In this document: in pieces, positions 42,576 through 48,029 of the stretch
Layout: each line of letters starts with the position of its first letter
Numbering within the stretch: the first letter of the stretch is position 1
IMG/VR virus record: IMGVR_UViG_3300044845_000732
Span: 1 to 64,000 of that record
Origin: a virus
Taxonomy: Duplodnaviria; Heunggongvirae; Uroviricota; Caudoviricetes
Reading direction: 5' to 3' (one strand)
DNA: 64,000 bases
Translations under genes and position numbers: made by a program
The notes under the pieces: generated by a model
Told to the model about the DNA's origin: nothing
Database searches by the model: none
Seen by the model: the letters and a program-made list of their open reading frames with translations, nothing else

Positions 42576-42597
42576 AAGTTATTTGAAATATTGGTAA
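42576..42597 (+). repeat. 22-nt leader element AAGTTATTTGAAATATTGGTAA (copy 1)
   Basis: Identical 22-mer at 45531-45552; both copies lie 7-8 nt upstream of the first tRNA of a subcluster. Confidence 0.6.
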
Positions 42598-42604
42598 ACA
42601 AAAT

Positions 42605-42688
42605 GGAAGGCGGCCGAATGGACGAGGAGCTTGTCTTGAAAACAAGTAGCGGGTAACACCGTTGTGGGTTCGATTCCCATGTCTTCCT
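42605..42688 (+). tRNA. tRNA-Ser(TGA), class II
   Basis: Hand-folded. Acceptor GGAAGGC/GTCTTCC; anticodon arm CTTGT-CTTGAAA-ACAAG; long variable arm; T-arm GTGGG-TTCGATT-CCCAT. D-arm atypical. Confidence 0.55.
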
Positions 42689-42694
42689 CAATTT

Positions 42695-42766
42695 TGCCCC
42701 TTCGTATATCGGTTAGTACACATGGTTTTGGTCCATGCGGGGGGAGTTCGATTCTCTCAGGGGTAA
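42695..42766 (+). tRNA. tRNA-Gln(TTG)
   Basis: U1:A72; anticodon arm CATGG-TTTTGGT-CCATG; T-loop TTCGATT. Confidence 0.65.
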
Positions 42767-42773
42767 CAAAAAT

Positions 42774-42845
42774 GGTGATATGGCCGAGTGGCTTAGGCAC
42801 AGGTCTGCAAAATCTGTTACGTGGGTTCGAATCCTACTATCACCT
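42774..42845 (+). tRNA. tRNA-Cys(GCA)
   Basis: Acceptor GGTGATA/TATCACC; anticodon loop CTGCAAA; discriminator U; T-loop TTCGAAT. Confidence 0.65.
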
Positions 42846-42850
42846 CAATC

Positions 42851-42918
42851 ACCGAGTGGTCCGGGACCAAAGACGGCTCATATCTGACTTTAGAATGGCT
42901 CAACACCATTACTCGGTA
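42851..42918 (+). ncRNA. degenerate tRNA-like element (CAT anticodon-like loop, non-canonical T-loop CTCAACA)
   Basis: Perfect 7-bp terminal stem ACCGAGT/ACTCGGT; T-arm-like AATGG-CTCAACA-CCATT; loop CTCATAT; irregular D-arm. Confidence 0.25.
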
Positions 42919-42924
42919 CAAATT

Positions 42925-42995
42925 ACCTTGTTGGCGTAACGGAAGCGTATTTGTTTTACATGCAAAGGGAAGTGGTTCGATTCCACTACGAGGTA
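42925..42995 (+). tRNA. tRNA-Val(TAC)
   Basis: Acceptor ACCTTGT/ACGAGGT; anticodon arm TTTGT-TTTACAT-GCAAA; T-arm AGTGG-TTCGATT-CCACT. Confidence 0.6.
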
Positions 42996-43001
42996 CAAAT
43001 T

Positions 43002-43082
43002 GGGGACGGAAAGTCGTTCGGATACGGCAGCGAGACTGTAAATCTCGTCCTTTTGGGAGTGGTTCGAGTCCACCCGGCCCCA
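43002..43082 (+). tRNA. tRNA-Tyr(GTA), class II
   Basis: Anticodon arm CGAGA-CTGTAAA-TCTCG; variable-arm hairpin TCC-tttt-GGA; T-loop TTCGAGT; one acceptor mismatch. Confidence 0.5.
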
Positions 43083-43226
43083 CTATGATAATGGTTTTCT
43101 CTATCTATCGGATGTCGACAATCCAAGATAGAATCAAGAATTCTGCACCCCCTGCCGAGGCCTCGTAAAACTACGATTAAGCAGTTAAGATTGGAGCGAG
43201 ATGGGTACTCCAACATTATCATTATT

Positions 43227-43299
43227 GGGTCTTTTGTATAGCTGGTGCGTACGCTAGTCTGAAGAACTAGAGGAGTAGGTTCGATTCCTACAGGACCCA
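43227..43299 (+). tRNA. tRNA-Phe(GAA)
   Basis: Acceptor GGGTCTT/AGGACCC; anticodon arm CTAGT-CTGAAGA-ACTAG; T-arm GTAGG-TTCGATT-CCTAC. Confidence 0.65.
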
Positions 43300-43306
43300 C
43301 AAAAAT

Positions 43307-43378
43307 TCTTCTGTCGTATAAAGGTTATTACGGTTGACTGTTAATCAATTTATGGTGGTTCGAGTCCACCCGGAAGAG
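43307..43378 (+). tRNA. tRNA-Asn(GTT)
   Basis: D-stem CGTA/TACG; anticodon arm GTTGA-CTGTTAA-TCAAT; T-arm GGTGG-TTCGAGT-CCACC. Confidence 0.6.
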
Positions 43379-43455
43379 CGGAGTCCCGAAATAACGGGAA
43401 ACCCCCACTCCCATATGGCAGCCGGTCCATTAACCCGGTGAAGTGGGGTAAAATT

Positions 43456-43527
43456 GCTCTTGTAGTAGAATGGTTAGCACACATTCCTGATAAGAATGAA
43501 AAGAAGGTTCAATTCCTTCCAAGAGTA
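43456..43527 (+). tRNA. tRNA-Ile(GAT)
   Basis: Acceptor GCTCTTG/CAAGAGT; anticodon arm CATTC-CTGATAA-GAATG; T-arm GAAGG-TTCAATT-CCTTC. Confidence 0.55.
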
Positions 43528-43635
43528 CAAAAACCTTAAATGTGGTACCCGATACTGACAGCTCTTTAGGAGTGATGGGTGTGAAAGCGGGTTGAAAAGG
43601 GTACATCTCAAACCCACATTGATAGGTTTAAATAT

Positions 43636-43708
43636 GGTGGCTATAGTGTAACGGTTAACACGATAGATTGTGGTTCTGTAAATGGGAGTTCGATTCTCCT
43701 TAGTCACC
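43636..43708 (+). tRNA. tRNA-His(GTG) with G-1
   Basis: Extra 5' G pairs with C73; anticodon loop TTGTGGT; T-arm GGGAG-TTCGATT-CTCCT. Confidence 0.65.
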
Positions 43709-43715
43709 CTAAATT

Positions 43716-43820
43716 GGTCAGGTGGCGGAATGGTAGACGATAAAATAGGTGAATGGGGAATAGTGTTAATCGCTCCTATTTGAATTCCCGGCAATACAGG
43801 TTCAAGTCCTGTCCTGACCA
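43716..43820 (+). ncRNA. 105-nt tRNA-like RNA (oversized; anticodon not assignable)
   Basis: Perfect acceptor GGTCAGG/CCTGACC; T-arm ACAGG-TTCAAGT-CCTGT; Leu/Ser-like D-loop AATGGTAGA. About 25 nt surplus between the D and T arms. Confidence 0.3.
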
Positions 43821-43826
43821 CAAATT

Positions 43827-43900
43827 GTCTCCATAGTTTAATTGGAAAAATACTTGAATACGAATCAAGAGACGTGGGAGTTCGACTCTTCCTGGGGACA
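43827..43900 (+). tRNA. tRNA-Arg(ACG)
   Basis: D-stem GTTT/AAAT; anticodon arm CTTGA-ATACGAA-TCAAG; T-loop TTCGACT. Confidence 0.6.
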
Positions 43901-44103
43901 CAAAATGGAGAGTAAAACAATCAGGGTATTGTCACCTCCTGCTAAGAGAGTGGTTCTGTAAAAGGGATGGATTTCGAGTATTCTGCTCTCCGCAGAAAAA
44001 AAATGAATATGGAAAAAGAAGAAAAATTTTGGTATGAAGTAGGGTTTTTCATAACTAAAAAAGGTATTAAAGTAACTCTGTATAGAGAAGTAAAATAAAA
44101 ATT

Positions 44104-44176
44104 CGGGTAGTAGGAAAGTTGGTAATCCGCTACATTTGGGATGTAGAGAACGCTGGTTCGAGTCCAGTCTACCCGA
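44104..44176 (+). tRNA. tRNA-Pro(TGG)
   Basis: C1:G72 acceptor CGGGTAG/CTACCCG; anticodon arm CTACA-TTTGGGA-TGTAG; T-loop TTCGAGT. Confidence 0.65.
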
Positions 44177-44361
44177 CAAATGTGGCTCACAGAGTTTGAT
44201 TATTAAGTTCAAATTAGTTATAATTTGAGCCAAATAACAGAACAAAATGAGCTCAAACGCCCTCTAGGCTTTAAAGTGAAGCACGATACTTTTAATATCG
44301 GGAAGAAGGAGCATTACCTTCAGGGGGTACAAAAAAATGTTTAACTAATAAATCAAAAGTC

Positions 44362-44868
44362 GTGAGTAAGTACGCAAAAACATTGGTTTTGGATTCAAGT
44401 TATATGCCAAGGTCTATCATAAACACTGAAAGGGCTTTTGTAATAACTTATAAGGGTAACGCGAGTGTTGTTGCCGAACATCCGGAATCATTTAATCTAA
44501 TCAATCCTGAGTTAGATATAAAGAAACCATCAATTATCAGGGTTTTCAAATATGTGAATCAACCGATTCATAAAGTTCCTTTAAGTAGAGAGAATGTTTA
44601 TCGTAGAGATAATTACTCCTGTGTTTATTGTGGGTGTGAGAATCGTAAGACATTGACATTAGACCACGTAATACCTCAGTCTAAAGGAGGTAAAGATGCT
44701 TGGGACAACTTGGTAACCGCTTGTAAGAAATGTAATAGTGAGAAGTCAAATTTAACGTTGGAAGAATATGGTAAGGAAATCCCTCAACCAAGACGACCAC
44801 ATTATTTGATGATGATTAAACAAGTTCATTATGTTCCAAAAGAGTGGGAAGATTATTTGTTTTTCTAA
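44362..44868 (+). CDS. HNH endonuclease inside the tRNA island
   Basis: CVYCGCENRKTLTLDHVIPQSKGG...WDNLVTACKKCNSEK (HNH with zinc-finger cysteines). Confidence 0.72.
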   Translation: MSKYAKTLVLDSSYMPRSIINTERAFVITYKGNASVVAEHPESFNLINPELDIKKPSIIRVFKYVNQPIHKVPLSRENVYRRDNYSCVYCGCENRKTLTLDHVIPQSKGGKDAWDNLVTACKKCNSEKSNLTLEEYGKEIPQPRRPHYLMMIKQVHYVPKEWEDYLFF

Positions 44869-44872
44869 AAAT

Positions 44873-44943
44873 GCGTGATACAGACGGGATGTCGTTCAGG
44901 TCTCCAAAACCTCGAAGGGTAGGTTTGACCCCTACATCACGCG
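44873..44943 (+). tRNA. tRNA-Trp(CCA)-like with a non-canonical T-loop (TTTGACC)
   Basis: Acceptor GCGTGAT/ATCACGC; anticodon loop CTCCAAA; T-stem GTAGG/CCTAC; short D-loop; C-C mismatch closes the anticodon stem. Confidence 0.35.
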
Positions 44944-45015
44944 CAGAAGACGGAGAGTGAGTCAAGGGTAATTCCGTTATGGTTATCCCTCGAGGGTCTC
45001 TCCTGAAGAAATATG

Positions 45016-45088
45016 GATTTTGAAGCACAATTGGACGTGCGACCGGCGTAAGGCCGGGAGGATATAGGTTCGAATCCTATCAATATCC
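45016..45088 (+). pseudogene. degenerate tRNA (class I, anticodon-loop CGTAAGG = UAA with G33)
   Basis: Good D-arm GCAC/GTGC and T-arm ATAGG-TTCGAAT-CCTAT. Acceptor has a T-T mismatch, and U33 is replaced by G. Confidence 0.3.
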
Positions 45089-45280
45089 CAAATTAAAAAT
45101 AAATCTTACCAATACTTGACACTTTTATAAAAAGGACTATATTTATTAGAAATTATAATAACACAGAAAATGCAAACTTTAAATACATTATTACTTACAA
45201 TAGGCGCGGAGGGTAGAGATACAACTCGGTCGGAGATGGTATGATGTATTGTTAAGTAATTACTAATATAATAAAATCCA

Positions 45281-45312
45281 TCTCCAAAAGAGGTGGATTT
45301 TTTTTTTATACT
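45281..45312 (+). terminator. rho-independent terminator closing the first tRNA transcription unit
   Basis: Hairpin ATCCATCTC-caaaa-GAGGTGGAT followed by T10. Confidence 0.65.
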
Positions 45313-45338
45313 ATGTTTGGTAAAATGAAAAAAAGTCT

Positions 45339-45346
45339 TATCTTTG
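45339..45346 (+). promoter_or_regulatory. -7 box TAtcTTTG
   Basis: Upstream of the small acidic ORF at 45364. Confidence 0.35.
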
Positions 45347-45363
45347 TCAAAACAAATTTAAAG

Positions 45364-45480
45364 ATGGAAGAACAAGAAACAAACGATACAACGTATCAAA
45401 AATTAGAATTGGTTTATTCACCAATCTTAGGGTCAGAATACATTTTAGTTGATGTAGAAGAAACTGAAGAAAAAGAATAA
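45364..45480 (+). CDS. possible small acidic ORF (38 aa)
   Basis: MEEQETNDTTYQKLELVYSPILGSEYILVDVEETEEKE; below the track cutoff. Confidence 0.2.
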   Translation: MEEQETNDTTYQKLELVYSPILGSEYILVDVEETEEKE

Positions 45481-45505
45481 AGTTTGGTAGATTAAAATAA
45501 AGTAT

Positions 45506-45513
45506 TATCTTTG
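45506..45513 (+). promoter_or_regulatory. -7 box TAtcTTTG upstream of the second tRNA subcluster
   Basis: Same architecture as 42549-42597: -7 box, about 17 nt, then the 22-mer. Confidence 0.45.
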
Positions 45514-45530
45514 TACCATCAAACAGAAAC

Positions 45531-45552
45531 AAGTTATTTGAAATATTGGTAA
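45531..45552 (+). repeat. 22-nt leader element AAGTTATTTGAAATATTGGTAA (copy 2)
   Basis: Identical to 42576-42597. Confidence 0.6.
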
Positions 45553-45559
45553 TACACAC

Positions 45560-45631
45560 GCTGCCATCGTCTAACGGTCAGGACATATGGTTTTCATCCA
45601 TAAAATCGGAGTTCGATTCTCCGTGGCAGTA
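45560..45631 (+). tRNA. tRNA-Glu(TTC)
   Basis: Anticodon arm TATGG-TTTTCAT-CCATA; T-arm CGGAG-TTCGATT-CTCCG. Confidence 0.6.
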
Positions 45632-45637
45632 CAAGAA

Positions 45638-45709
45638 GGGGTTATAGTATAACGGCAATTACTATGGTTTTGCAAATCATAAATTGGAGTTCGATTCTCC
45701 ATAGCTCCA
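45638..45709 (+). tRNA. tRNA-Ala(TGC)
   Basis: G3:U70 identity pair present; anticodon loop TTTGCAA; T-arm TGGAG-TTCGATT-CTCCA. Confidence 0.65.
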
Positions 45710-45809
45710 CAAAAAAACAGAAAGACAGAATACGGGAAGTCACTACCCGGGAAACACGGTTCTTTCTCATTCAATTGTTATAGGATTGTCACCTTTGAAT
45801 TGAAATTTT

Positions 45810-45881
45810 GGTCTATTCGTTCAACGGCTAGGATGCTACCCTGTCACGGTAGAGATGAGAGTTCGATTCTCTCATAGACCG
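45810..45881 (+). tRNA. tRNA-Asp(GTC)
   Basis: Acceptor GGTCTAT/ATAGACC with G73; anticodon arm CTACC-CTGTCAC-GGTAG. Confidence 0.65.
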
Positions 45882-46049
45882 CCATAAATAATACATCGCG
45901 AGGGGGAGGTATAGTATCTCATCGGTCTCATAAGCCGACCAAAGCAGGAGCGTTACCTGCCCTACGCTACAAAAGTGTCTCGGTCCGCTCTGACGAAAGT
46001 CAACGACGAGGTCCCGGTAGACAGAACGCGTCTGATTCTACCCAAATCT

Positions 46050-46121
46050 GCAGATATCGTATAGTGGTTATTACTCCAGCCTTCCAAGCTTGAGACGAGA
46101 GTTCGATTCTCTCTATCTGCT
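46050..46121 (+). tRNA. tRNA-Gly(TCC)
   Basis: Acceptor GCAGATA/TATCTGC with U73; anticodon loop CTTCCAA; one C-U mismatch in the anticodon stem. Confidence 0.55.
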
Positions 46122-46128
46122 CTAAACC

Positions 46129-46200
46129 GCCTTCATAGTTCAAGGGATAGAATAAGACACTTCTAATGTTTTGATATAGGTTCGAGTCCTATTGAGGGTA
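46129..46200 (+). tRNA. tRNA-Arg(TCT)
   Basis: D-stem GTTC/GAAT; anticodon arm AGACA-CTTCTAA-TGTTT; T-loop TTCGAGT. Confidence 0.55.
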
Positions 46201-46208
46201 CAACAATT

Positions 46209-46281
46209 GCCCCGGTGGTGGAACGGTAGACACGCTTGTTTTAGGCACAAGATTTTGAGGGTTCGAGTCCCTCTTGGGGTA
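46209..46281 (+). tRNA. class-I tRNA with anticodon TAG (Leu box), anomalous
   Basis: Perfect anticodon arm CTTGT-TTTAGGC-ACAAG (G37) but a short variable loop; acceptor has three G-U pairs. Confidence 0.45.
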
Positions 46282-46436
46282 CAACACATTATCATAACTC
46301 GGTGTGATACACCGCCCACTACCTCCTTAAACAACGTGGGAACTGCGGTTCTCCCAATGTGGCCGAAGTGATGATGTTAAAATAGTAGTTTAAGAGACAG
46401 AGTTGACTTCTACTTTAAAAAAATACTCTGCGACAG

Positions 46437-46519
46437 GCTTCCGTCGCATAGAGGTTGATTGCACCTGATTTGTAATCAGGAACCGAAAGGTCACGTTGGT
46501 TCGAATCCAATCGGAAGCT
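46437..46519 (+). tRNA. class-II (long variable arm) tRNA with loop TTTGTAA (nominal anticodon TGT), anomalous
   Basis: Acceptor GCTTCCG/CGGAAGC perfect; anticodon arm CCTGA-TTTGTAA-TCAGG; variable-arm hairpin ACC-gaaa-GGT; T-loop TTCGAAT. Confidence 0.45.
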
Positions 46520-46748
46520 CGAGTCGTTTTTTTTGTTGGTTTAGTTGTTAATATGTTTTTTTTGTAGTTAAAAAAAAATCATTGTAAACAATAGGTTTTT
46601 AGAAGTTTCTTATCCTTAAAAGAAAGTATGGTGAGGTTTAAGATAAGATTAACATAACCTTAAATGGAAAATCTTTCAAAAAAACGGAAAAATGGTAAAG
46701 ACAAACTCAAGTCGAAGATGGTGAACGTGACCATCCGTTTTTCCAAAC

Positions 46749-46828
46749 ATCCCCGTGGTGAAACTGGTATACACGACAGGCTTAAGACTTGTTGCTCAGG
46801 CATGTGAGTTCGACTCTCACCGGGGATA
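46749..46828 (+). tRNA. tRNA-Leu(TAA), class II
   Basis: Acceptor ATCCCCG/CGGGGAT; anticodon arm ACAGG-CTTAAGA-CTTGT; variable arm of about 11 nt; T-loop TTCGACT. Confidence 0.55.
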
Positions 46829-46888
46829 CTAATATTAAAAGTGTAAATTATCAATATGAAAAACCAAAATCCGAACTCCACGTAGTAC

Positions 46889-47137
46889 TTGATTAGTTCA
46901 AGTATTATGACTCAGAAATTGAGAATTTGGAGAGTAGTTCCCGTTAGAAACGGTGTTCAGGCTCCCACTTTTTTTGTGGAAACCACAGAAGAAGGACGTG
47001 AGAAGGCAGAGGAATCTGCGATTAAACAAGCAAGGTTAAAAACCGGCTTAGGAAAGTTCAAACAATGGAACTTTAGATTGGAGAAACTCTCTGTGAGGGT
47101 GGATAAATTTGGTCGATACATTAAACATCACCAATAA
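46889..47137 (+). CDS. small hypothetical protein inside the tRNA island
   Basis: 82-aa ORF between tRNA-Leu and tRNA-Met. Confidence 0.3.
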   Translation: MISSSIMTQKLRIWRVVPVRNGVQAPTFFVETTEEGREKAEESAIKQARLKTGLGKFKQWNFRLEKLSVRVDKFGRYIKHHQ

Positions 47138-47228
47138 GGTTCAATAAAAACCGCTGGGGGTTTCAAATTACTCAGTGTACTTTTTAGGTTAAAGTCATGT
47201 AGGGTGTTTACACCAAAACCTAATTTTT

Positions 47229-47303
47229 GTCCTTGTAGCTAAATTGGTGAAGGCGCTCGGCTCATAACCGAGAGATATGCAGGTTCGATGCCTGCCGAGG
47301 ACA
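47229..47303 (+). tRNA. tRNA-Met(CAT) (elongator or Ile2-type)
   Basis: Acceptor GTCCTTG/CGAGGAC; anticodon arm CTCGG-CTCATAA-CCGAG; T-loop TTCGATG. Confidence 0.6.
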
Positions 47304-47341
47304 CAATTTTTTTTGTATTTAATTGATATTTTTTGAATTTG

Positions 47342-47374
47342 TTAACCCTCAATGAAAATTGGGGGTTTTTTATT
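47342..47374 (+). terminator. rho-independent terminator closing the second tRNA transcription unit
   Basis: Hairpin AACCCTCAA-tgaaaa-TTGGGGGTT followed by T6. Confidence 0.6.
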
Positions 47375-47420
47375 GGTTAGATTAAAAATAATGATTATCT
47401 TTGTAAAAAAATATAAAGAT

Positions 47421-48029
47421 ATGATAGATAATATTGACGTAGTAAAATCTTTATTGAACTTTACCGAACCGGGTGACTTCTATATGTTGTATGTATTCAA
47501 GAGAAAGAAGGACCAACCTGAAGGTGAGAGAGATAATCACCAATCAGTAAGGACTATTAAAACTTACTGCGTTGATAGTATCGAACATCTTGATAGGAGA
47601 TATGATGAGATTAAACAACTTTGTGAGATGTTTAAAGCTCGTGCATATATCCACGTTCAAAAACAAAATCATCGTGATGTATCTTTAGATATGTTGTCGA
47701 CATTGGCGGAAAGAATTAAAAACGGAGCTCAAAACCAAAAAGGGTTATTTGATTCTGTTGTTGGGCAAATCAAAACTCAAGAAAAGAGATGGATTATTGA
47801 TGTTGATACTAAGGACAAAAAATTCCTTAGAGATATTACTATGGATTTAATGTATATTTTACCTTTAGGGGATAAAGTTGAAAAAGTAGTTCCAACTAAA
47901 AATGGGTATCATTTAATCACAAGTAAATTCAATGTGATGGAATTTAAAGACAAGTATCCGGATGTTGACATCCAAAAGAAAAACCCAACCTTATTGTATT
48001 ACCCTAACATATTAGATAATGGAAATTAA
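47421..48029 (+). CDS. hypothetical protein
   Basis: Start set at ATG 47421 (MIDNIDVV), with TAtcTTTG at 47396-47403. Confidence 0.5.
   Translation: MIDNIDVVKSLLNFTEPGDFYMLYVFKRKKDQPEGERDNHQSVRTIKTYCVDSIEHLDRRYDEIKQLCEMFKARAYIHVQKQNHRDVSLDMLSTLAERIKNGAQNQKGLFDSVVGQIKTQEKRWIIDVDTKDKKFLRDITMDLMYILPLGDKVEKVVPTKNGYHLITSKFNVMEFKDKYPDVDIQKKNPTLLYYPNILDNGN

Follow-up and report, generated by a model that had tools for sequence, protein, structure and literature searches.

A tRNA-Leu(UAG) with a short variable loop (type I; 46209..46281, + strand) and a tRNA-Thr(UGU) with a long variable arm (type II; 46437..46519, + strand) lie in one transfer RNA (tRNA) array of the virus record IMGVR_UViG_3300044845_000732 (Caudoviricetes), positions 1 to 64,000 of which form the window of 64,000 nucleotides (nt) analysed here. 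Both are real, structurally mismatched tRNA genes, and the mismatch is conserved and no folding artefact. Both fall into phage tRNA families with homologues in coliphage T5, and the codons that they match behave as the standard code predicts. We consider it likely, from sequence comparison, that both are working phage tRNAs which read standard codons on phage-typical bodies, and which thereby break the rule that a long variable arm denotes Leu, Ser or Tyr. The window itself is AT-rich, phage-like sequence with a GC content of 32%, and its genes use the standard code.

The tRNA genes were called with ARAGORN and the Rfam model RF00005 (gathering score 29 bits), and their features were then read off the sequence directly. 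ARAGORN reports a tRNA-Leu(tag) at 46209-46282 and a tRNA-Thr(tgt) at 46437-46520, while the RF00005 matches at 46209-46281 (54.1 bits, E 6.8e-10) and 46437-46519 (56.7 bits, E 1.3e-10) both exceed the gathering score; no Rfam family besides tRNA matched the region. The assignment of the Leu gene draws in addition on family statistics and nearest bodies, and that of the Thr gene on its minimum-energy fold and a covariance model. An initial annotation, made from the sequence alone, had described a class-I body with anticodon UAG in the one gene and a class-II architecture with the loop TTTGTAA in the other, and both descriptions were borne out.

The Leu gene is 73 nt long and reads, by structural segment, GCCCCGG UG GUGG AACGGUAG ACAC G CUUGU UUUAGGC ACAAG AUUUU GAGGG UUCGAGU CCCUC UUGGGGU A. 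Its anticodon UAG occupies 46242-46244 and is followed by G37 (46245), the variable loop AUUUU takes up only 5 nt (46252-46256), and the discriminator base is A73 (46281), with no CCA encoded. The D stem has 3 base pairs (bp) together with G13·A22, and A14-A15 and U48 are present. The textbook bacterial tRNA-Leu is type II, with a variable arm of more than 10 nt, a length that the 5-nt loop of this gene does not reach. The initial annotation had held that bacterial tRNA-Leu is always class II; this does not hold strictly, given the type-I tRNA-Leu(CAA) of Streptomyces coelicolor (PMC6614811) and a short-loop mycobacterial tRNA-Leu(TAG) (PMC6582537).

The Thr gene is 83 nt long (GCUUCCG UC GCA UAGAGGUUGAU UGC A CCUGA UUUGUAA UCAGG A-ACC-GAAA-GGU-CAC GUUGG UUCGAAU CCAAU CGGAAGC U). 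Its acceptor stem, with G1-C72 and C2-G71, and its T stem show the canonical 7/5 arrangement, its D stem has 3 bp (46446-46448 with 46460-46462), and it ends in U73 (46519) with no CCA encoded. The anticodon arm consists of a 5-bp stem and the 7-nt loop UUUGUAA, with the anticodon UGU at 46471-46473 and A37. The variable arm (46481..46494, + strand) measures 14 nt, made up of one unpaired A, a 3-bp stem ACC/GGU, the GNRA tetraloop GAAA and three unpaired nucleotides (CAC). The minimum-energy fold of the gene is a five-arm cloverleaf (z = -2.6). A tyrosine anticodon GUA, shifted by one, had been offered as a second reading of this loop; an anticodon arm of 6-7 bp is possible in the minimum-energy fold, yet the family keeps the 5-bp stem and a 7-nt YUUGUAA loop, so UGU was retained and GUA rejected.

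The long-arm tRNA-Thr(UGU) is not confined to this window. IMG/VR was scanned by sequence pattern, an approach that is ascertainment-biased; the counts of loci given here are lower bounds. A scan for the Thr D arm (pattern TCGCATAGNGGNNGATTGC) returned at least 118 loci, and the matches listed comprise 87 unique tRNAs, 67 of them long-arm Thr(UGU) genes. Among these listed genes G1-C72 and C2-G71 each occur in 63 of 67, U73 in 64 and the loop YUUGUAA in 65, which settles the choice between UGU and GUA. The commonest arm, of 1 nt, 3 bp, a tetraloop and 3 nt, is found in 34 of the 67; GAAA forms the tetraloop of 18 genes, with GCAA in 5 and GUAA in 4. The window gene shows all of the family features, namely the D arm UC-GCA-UAGNGGNNGAU-UGC, a variable arm of this commonest form, G1-C72, C2-G71, U73 and the YUUGUAA loop.

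Covariation was assessed on 58 long-arm Thr(UGU) sequences from which the window's own clade had been excluded. In this alignment 98.7% of cells are paired, and the covariation score of 0.80 compares with 0.157 for shuffles (reached in 0 of 500) and at most 0.142 for slid partners. The variable-arm helix is itself paired in 98.9% of cells, and its three stem pairs all covary, with changes on both sides. A covariance model built without the window's clade (R1) gives the window gene as its top match (98.4 bits); it scores T5 tRNA-Thr at 74.2, long-arm tRNA-Ser and tRNA-Tyr of a T4-like phage at 63 and 60 bits, respectively, and a short-loop tRNA-Thr at 43 bits.

In cellular genomes (one genome for each of 185,579 species), the D-arm and UGU motif produced 30 matches, all in metagenome-assembled genomes (MAGs). 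Judged by these sequence searches, long-arm Thr(UGU) is a large, covarying phage family which is nearly absent from cellular genomes. On some viral loci of 7-14 kb it is the sole tRNA. Several cellular contigs deserve separate mention. A lone long-arm tRNA-Thr(UGU) stands on megabase contigs in L343 (6443-6527) and L347 (597-681; Hymenobacter MAG, 2.9-Mb contig) and in L324 (a Spirosomataceae MAG); the L343 gene has a glycosyltransferase gene on one side and a GmrSD-type restriction gene on the other. A 176-kb contig of a Bacteroidales MAG (L326, 5312-7017) has a small set of tRNAs made up of Leu(CAA) and of Lys(UUU), Asn(GUU) and long-arm Thr(UGU), the latter three being exactly the tRNAs reported in Escherichia coli as targets of AriB of the PARIS system.

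A corresponding scan for short-arm Leu(UAG) (pattern TTAGN{8,10}TTTTGNGNGTTCRANTC) returned at least 119 loci with at least 96 unique Leu(UAG) genes. The 109 unique short-arm genes among the matches listed are 97-100% paired in their stems, with 3-7 pair types per position, and contain A73 in 108, A14-A15 in 106 and G13·A22 in 83 cases. The window gene shares the features of this family (73-77 nt, a variable loop ending in UUUU, a 3-bp D stem with G13·A22, A73 and UAG), and a T5 gene (L206) belongs to the same set. Other short-arm phage tRNA-Leu genes were seen with the anticodons UAA, CAA and CAG.

The frequency of each trait was also read from the loci selected for the other, in which it was not the target of the scan. 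Among the matches listed, the short arm occurs in 19 of 34 unique Leu(UAG) genes of the Thr-selected loci, and the long arm in 2 of 67 Thr(UGU) genes of the Leu-selected loci. These off-target frequencies indicate that the two traits are independent and that their pairing in the window is not the rule.

Contigs related to the window repeat the pattern. In those that bear the array, 16 of 17 unique Leu(UAG) genes measure 74-77 nt by ARAGORN, and every stem shows compensatory changes; the Thr(UGU) slot holds either a long-arm gene of 82-85 nt or an ordinary gene of 73-74 nt. The two Thr types have acceptor stems in common (GCUUCC.../...GGAAGC-U or GCUGGU.../...ACCAGC-U), as would be expected from a shared threonine identity. 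No close cultured relative was found in the GenBank phage set, in which the best DNA matches are single tRNAs; the crAss-like IAS virus, a match at the tRNA level, has the ordinary arrangement of a long-arm Leu(UAG) of 83 nt and a short-loop Thr(UGU) of 74 nt (ARAGORN lengths). The open reading frame (ORF) downstream of the array, at 47352-48029, has 354 relatives in IMG/VR, and its homologues in cultured phages come from Bacteroidota phages only. By this sequence evidence the phage family of the window looks Bacteroidota-associated. Cellulophaga phage phi17:2 has this flanking ORF in common with the window and no tRNAs in the stretch examined.

The features by which aminoacyl-tRNA synthetases are known to select their substrates agree with the anticodon in both tRNAs, contrary to the suggestion in the initial annotation that they are chimeras of conflicting identity. 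The identity positions of E. coli threonyl-tRNA synthetase (ThrRS), G1-C72, C2-G71, G35 and U36, are all present in the Thr gene. E. coli tRNA-Ser is identified by G2-C71, and substrates of seryl-tRNA synthetase (SerRS) have a variable stem of 5-7 bp with 0-1 nt on its 3' side or, in allo-tRNAs, an 8/4 or 9/3 arrangement, none of which is seen in the Thr gene. Neither does it carry GUA and A73, the marks of bacterial tRNA-Tyr, since it has UGU in a fixed 7-nt loop and U73; its likeness to tRNA-Tyr is limited to arm geometry and D arm. The E. coli leucyl-tRNA synthetase (LeuRS) set (A73, A14, the A15-U48 pair and the G18G19 elbow) is complete in the Leu gene. Published work places the recognition elements of ThrRS in the acceptor stem and anticodon, and finds that E. 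coli LeuRS requires A73 and tertiary contacts between D and T loops, the long arm being dispensable (PMC9976931).

Isotypes were further compared through nearest-neighbour bodies with the anticodon masked, alongside the family covariance model. With short-arm Leu genes excluded, long-arm tRNA-Leu genes with various anticodons account for 18 of the 20 bodies nearest to the Leu tRNA. The Thr tRNA lies closest to other Thr(UGU) genes of either type, long-arm or short-loop, and next to long-arm Ser, Lys, Asn and Tyr tRNAs of phages. The geometry of the Thr arm, with 3 bp and 3 unpaired nucleotides on the 3' side, is that of phage tRNA-Tyr, while phage tRNA-Ser has 5-7 bp and 0-1 nt at that side. 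From these elements we infer which synthetases charge the two tRNAs: C2-G71 and U73 argue against SerRS, tyrosyl-tRNA synthetase (TyrRS) and LeuRS for the Thr gene, and G1-C72, C2-G71, G35 and U36 fit ThrRS. The Leu tRNA would be a normal tRNA-Leu body in which a 5-nt RUUUU loop replaces the long variable arm and the known LeuRS elements are kept. In the Thr tRNA, a threonine acceptor stem and anticodon appear to be joined to a D stem of 3 bp and to a short variable arm of Tyr-like form that ends in a GNRA loop. The remark on a shifted tyrosine anticodon may hint at the origin of this body, given its Tyr-like arm geometry and an identical D arm in one phage tRNA-Tyr.

If charged in this way, Leu(UAG) would read CUA and CUG, and possibly all CUN codons, as leucine, and Thr(UGU) would read ACA, and ACG by wobble, as threonine. 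In the genes of the window, ACA is the top threonine codon (43% of Thr codons) and CTA makes up 8% of leucine codons. Codon exchange was followed by aligning window genes with their homologues in related contigs (113 alignments). Opposite ACA, Thr codons stand in 67% and Ser codons in 8.3% of cases, the corresponding values for ACT being 78.6% and 8.2%; CTA aligns with Leu codons in 89%, and Ser codons are outside its top five. Since ACA and CTA exchange like ordinary synonyms, and the codon bias that the initial annotation proposed to check shows no sign of reassignment, its idea of reassigned or decoding-altering tRNAs is unsupported. An alternative fold with a canonical 5-7-5 anticodon arm and a consistent isotype, which would have removed the mismatch, is not needed.

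Evidence that such a body can work in a cell comes from T5. AriB of PARIS cuts E. coli tRNA-Thr(UGU), and expression of the T5 tRNAs Lys(UUU), Thr(UGU) and Asn(GUU) restored growth and phage infection; T5 tRNA-Thr(UGU) combined with T5 tRNA-Lys, with or without tRNA-Asn, gave rescue from AriB (PMC12409363). By its gene sequence, T5 tRNA-Thr(UGU) is of the long-arm type, so this architecture can function in vivo.

Several points weigh against standard decoding by functional tRNAs. The search pattern itself dictated part of the variable-loop features of the Leu family, though none of its other features. The sequences in the codon-exchange comparison are related and non-independent, and low-level mistranslation in competition with host tRNAs would escape it. 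E. coli LeuRS did not charge the type-I tRNA-Leu(CAA) of S. coelicolor (PMC6614811), which implies that loss of the arm is not automatically tolerated. The T5 rescue experiments left the effect of the variable arm unexamined, and the arm goes unmentioned in that paper (PMC12409363). Finally, a long arm with U73 is compatible with SerRS in allo-tRNAs (PMC5389517), and 33 sampled phage tRNA-Ser genes appear to have U73. The last two observations also speak for missense decoding or recoding, in which the UGU tRNA would be charged by SerRS (or by TyrRS or LeuRS) and insert a wrong residue at ACA, and the UAG tRNA would be charged otherwise and alter the decoding of CUN. Long arms are recognised by SerRS whatever the anticodon, serylation is presumed for allo-tRNAs that combine G73 or U73 with a non-Ser anticodon (PMC5389517), and CUN has been reassigned in yeast mitochondria via an unusual tRNA(UAG) (PMC7609411). 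We nevertheless regard recoding as quite improbable. The variable stem of merely 3 bp with 3 unpaired nucleotides at its 3' side is of Tyr type and unlike the 5-7 bp of phage tRNA-Ser, C2-G71 is held by 63 of the 67 members listed where tRNA-Ser has G2-C71, and U73 takes the place of the A73 that is critical for LeuRS and TyrRS (PMC9976931). The UGU gene is, moreover, the only Thr tRNA in an otherwise near-complete array. ACA, as the top Thr codon, exchanges with Ser codons no more than ACT does, the 89% exchange of CTA with Leu codons points the same way, and the Leu body is Leu-like throughout.

Two further explanations concern function. The tRNAs might serve mainly as decoys, that is as competitive inhibitors or sponges of host tRNA-targeting nucleases or toxins, with a minor or absent part in translation. 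Some overexpressed viral tRNAs might indeed inhibit AriB by competition (PMC12409363), the Thr tRNAs of the window and of T5 retain a host-like U36-A-A-U-C-A41 around the AriB cut site, and the occurrence of long-arm Thr(UGU) as a sole tRNA on small viral loci would suit such a role. A decoy, however, needs less than the identity elements, 7-nt loop, U33, A37 and T loop that are conserved over hundreds of genes and that decoding needs; the anticodons also match codons heavily used by the phage, and the array supplies nearly one tRNA per amino acid. A predominantly decoy function is therefore unlikely in our view. That the two genes are decaying pseudogenes, the Leu gene through deletion of its arm and the Thr gene through an insertion, is hardly credible. 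The same array does hold degenerate tRNA-like sequences (45016-45088, with G33, and the Trp-like 44873-44950), but each of the two architectures is found in more than 100 diverse viral loci, with 97-100% pairing, compensatory changes in every stem and invariant functional positions, and T5 keeps both, its Thr tRNA being active in vivo. Standard decoding by functional tRNAs on unusual bodies is thus the reading we prefer.

Why phages keep such bodies is a separate question, on which we offer a tentative answer, held at less than even confidence: the switched body type may be retained because defence enzymes of the host that target tRNAs act poorly on such a phage tRNA, which the synthetases nonetheless accept. 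The cut of AriB lies in the anticodon stem at 40|41, beside the exit of the variable arm, and its modelled contacts extend to the D loop (PMC12409363). Other defence enzymes that target tRNA-Thr include the anticodon nuclease HepS (PMC13043305) and the toxSAS FaRel2, which selects tRNA-Gly and tRNA-Thr (bioRxiv 10.1101/2024.07.05.602228). A host-like site motif (U36-A-A-U-C-A41 or -C41) is preserved in the window Thr, T5 Thr and T5 Asn tRNAs, all of which have extra arms, while T5 Lys tRNA combines a normal loop with a mutated AriB site (sequence and PMC12409363); long-arm versions of all three AriB targets (Lys UUU, Thr UGU and Asn GUU) exist in phages. In a more specific form, which we find somewhat doubtful, switching of body type would be a counter-defence strategy of phage tRNAs: the GNRA arm of Thr(UGU) would block nucleases such as AriB/PARIS and the loss of the Leu arm would hide that tRNA from enzymes which select long arms, the identity elements staying intact. 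The facts on the AriB site, the long arms, the sole tRNAs and the rarity in cells fit a counter-defence role without proving it. In the literature open to search, no paper was found that discusses the body switch or the arm of T5 tRNA-Thr.

Departures from the class rule go beyond Leu and Thr. Extra arms with GNRA-type caps are found on phage Lys(UUU), Asn(GUU), Cys(GCA), Gly(UCC), Met(CAU) and Trp(CCA) (IMG/VR loci, e.g., L144, L104, L112, L020 and L090), phage Ile(UAU) has an arm of about 23 nt of its own kind with a conserved CCAGAUUAG-like motif in 17 of 33 sampled genes, and the D arm GCAUAGNGGNNGAUUGC forms a common body for Thr, Gly, Met, Asn, Tyr and Ser anticodons. The premise of textbooks and annotation tools that a long arm means Leu, Ser, Tyr or Sec thus fails systematically in phages, in which short-arm tRNA-Leu is common as well. 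Such genes will show up as mismatches when isotypes are called or genetic codes inferred in viral metagenomes, even where no recoding exists. A recognition puzzle also arises, as ThrRS, a class II synthetase, approaches from the side of the variable arm, yet must accept the extra arm. The arms race around tRNA-targeting defences (PARIS/AriB, HepS, toxSAS) is touched too, the anti-PARIS T5 tRNA-Thr(UGU) being of the long-arm type.

Both genes are part of an array of 20 ARAGORN-called tRNA genes (42605..47304, + strand). By these calls it supplies nearly one tRNA per amino acid and includes a single tRNA-Thr (the UGU gene), two tRNA-Leu and a separate tRNA-Tyr(GUA) at 43002-43083. The second tRNA-Leu, Leu(UAA) at 46749..46828 (+; ARAGORN and Rfam), has an ordinary long arm and served for comparison. 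The sequence at 45016..45088 (+) is probably a pseudo-tRNA or a non-canonical tRNA. Rfam scores it at 40 bits and ARAGORN does not call it; its loop CGUAAGG has G33 in place of the universal U33, it ends in C73, and there is a mismatch in the acceptor stem and another in the anticodon stem. The initial annotation had called it a degenerate copy; it is a weaker tRNA-like sequence, but no copy of the Leu tRNA and unrelated to the Leu body. Its only relatives are in the related contigs L023 and L024 (94.6% identity). An HNH endonuclease gene (44362..44868, +; Pfam HNH_5, E 1.8e-16) is located within the array, and an HNH gene is likewise found inside the mycobacterial tRNA cluster with the short-loop tRNA-Leu(TAG) (PMC6582537). 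No synthetase or tRNA-repair gene was found beside the array, where Pfam and PHROGs gave the HNH endonuclease, cell-wall hydrolases, domains of unknown function and unmatched proteins only.

The array also contains several conserved elements outside the called genes. A diverged tRNA-Trp(CCA)-like sequence at 44873-44950 (+), missed by ARAGORN and Rfam, aligns with tRNA-Trp of related contigs; among the called genes of the array, Trp and Lys are not represented. A hairpin element, some 60 nt long, at 44949-45013 (+; GGAGAGUGAGUCAAGGGUAAUUCCGUUAUGGUUAUCCCUCGAGGGUCUCUCC), also without an Rfam match, is 89-100% identical across about 20 related loci, lies directly 3' of the tRNA-Trp slot in four aligned loci and is far more conserved than the adjacent tRNAs. 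Just upstream of tRNA-Trp in relatives, ARAGORN makes 93-94-nt calls of "tRNA-Pro/Gln/His/Glu" (L004 2250-2343, L010 10677-10770 and L013 11479-11572), which, rather than real tRNAs, seem to be a conserved tRNA-like element that contains a TΨC-like repeat. Between the Leu and Thr genes, about 90 nt at 46286-46378 (+; ACAUUAUCAUAAC...GUGAUGAUGU) are near-invariant in four related contigs whose flanks differ. This stretch folds into a closed multi-stem structure (-26.3 kcal/mol, z = -2.1), has no Rfam match, and may represent a small RNA, so far undescribed, that is transcribed together with the tRNAs. An exact 22-nt repeat (AAGTTATTTGAAATATTGGTAA; 42576-42597 and 45531-45552, +) immediately precedes two sub-clusters, whose first tRNAs are Ser at 42605 and Glu at 45560, and a second repeat family (GTTTGGTA...TTATCTTTGT) has three copies (45315, 45482 and 47373, +); both are likely promoter or processing signals of the array. 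The adjoining ORF 47352-48029 (+) has no Pfam match, and its homologue in Cellulophaga phage phi17:2 (L085 20001-20609) adjoins a gene for tRNA nucleotidyltransferase, the CCA-adding enzyme. This neighbourhood hints at a tRNA-related role for the ORF.

The closest parallel among known systems is T5. A BLAST search of GenBank phages with the window Thr gene matched tRNA-Thr of T5-like phages (81% identity over 57 nt). T5 tRNA-Thr(UGU), annotated in GenBank as 87 nt including CCA (an 84-nt gene plus CCA), carries an extra arm capped by GUAA; T5-like phages of Salmonella and E. coli have this tRNA too. It agrees with the window gene in G1-C72 and C2-G71, in a D stem of 3 bp and in a variable arm of about 14 nt that ends in a GNRA loop, and the anticodon arms are identical (CCUGA UUUGUAA UCAGG). 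It differs in its A73 and encoded CCA, in its D loop (GAAUGGUUGAA versus UAGAGGUUGAU in the window) and apparently in the phylum of its host, and the T5 gene had no match in 5,426 complete E. coli genomes. T5 tRNA-Asn(GUU) has an arm of 13 nt. The T5 tRNAs Leu(UAG) and Leu(UAA), each of 74 nt plus CCA with the variable loop GUUUU and A73, resemble the window Leu(UAG) in the 73-74-nt body, RUUUU loop, A73, 3-bp D stem and GAGGG/GUGGG UUCGA T arm. In T5, however, both Leu isoacceptors are short-armed, whereas in the window Leu(UAA) keeps its long arm and Leu(UAG) alone is short. With both types in T5, a classical model phage already displays the "mismatch".

Other precedents are more distant. 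The tRNA-Leu(TAG) of a mycobacterial tRNA cluster has a short variable loop and sits in a mobile-looking array with an HNH gene, as in the window; it is located on a bacterial chromosome, is mentioned in passing and is likened here by its description alone (Behra et al., 2019; PMC6582537). Apart from this passing remark, the searched literature held nothing on long-arm Thr or short-arm Leu of T5 or other phages, older subscription papers on T5 tRNA sequences being outside the search. The type-I tRNA-Leu(CAA) of S. coelicolor and animal mitochondrial tRNA-Leu likewise lack the long arm and are charged by a bacterial-type LeuRS; the S. coelicolor case differs from the window in anticodon and lineage, and charging there relies on a specialised leucine-specific domain of LeuRS (PMC6614811). 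Allo-tRNAs, including (8/4) tRNA-Ser/His, share with the window Thr tRNA a long arm on anticodons other than Leu, Ser and Tyr, some being phage-encoded and some having U73. Theirs, however, is an 8/4 or 9/3 arrangement with long D stems and arms and they are thought to be serylated, whereas the window tRNA has a 7/5 arrangement, a 3-bp arm and a threonine acceptor (Mukai et al., 2017; PMC5389517). Neither a new kind of element nor a change of code is involved: the precedents in T5, mycobacteria and S. coelicolor make the two window genes new members of existing, under-described phage tRNA families.

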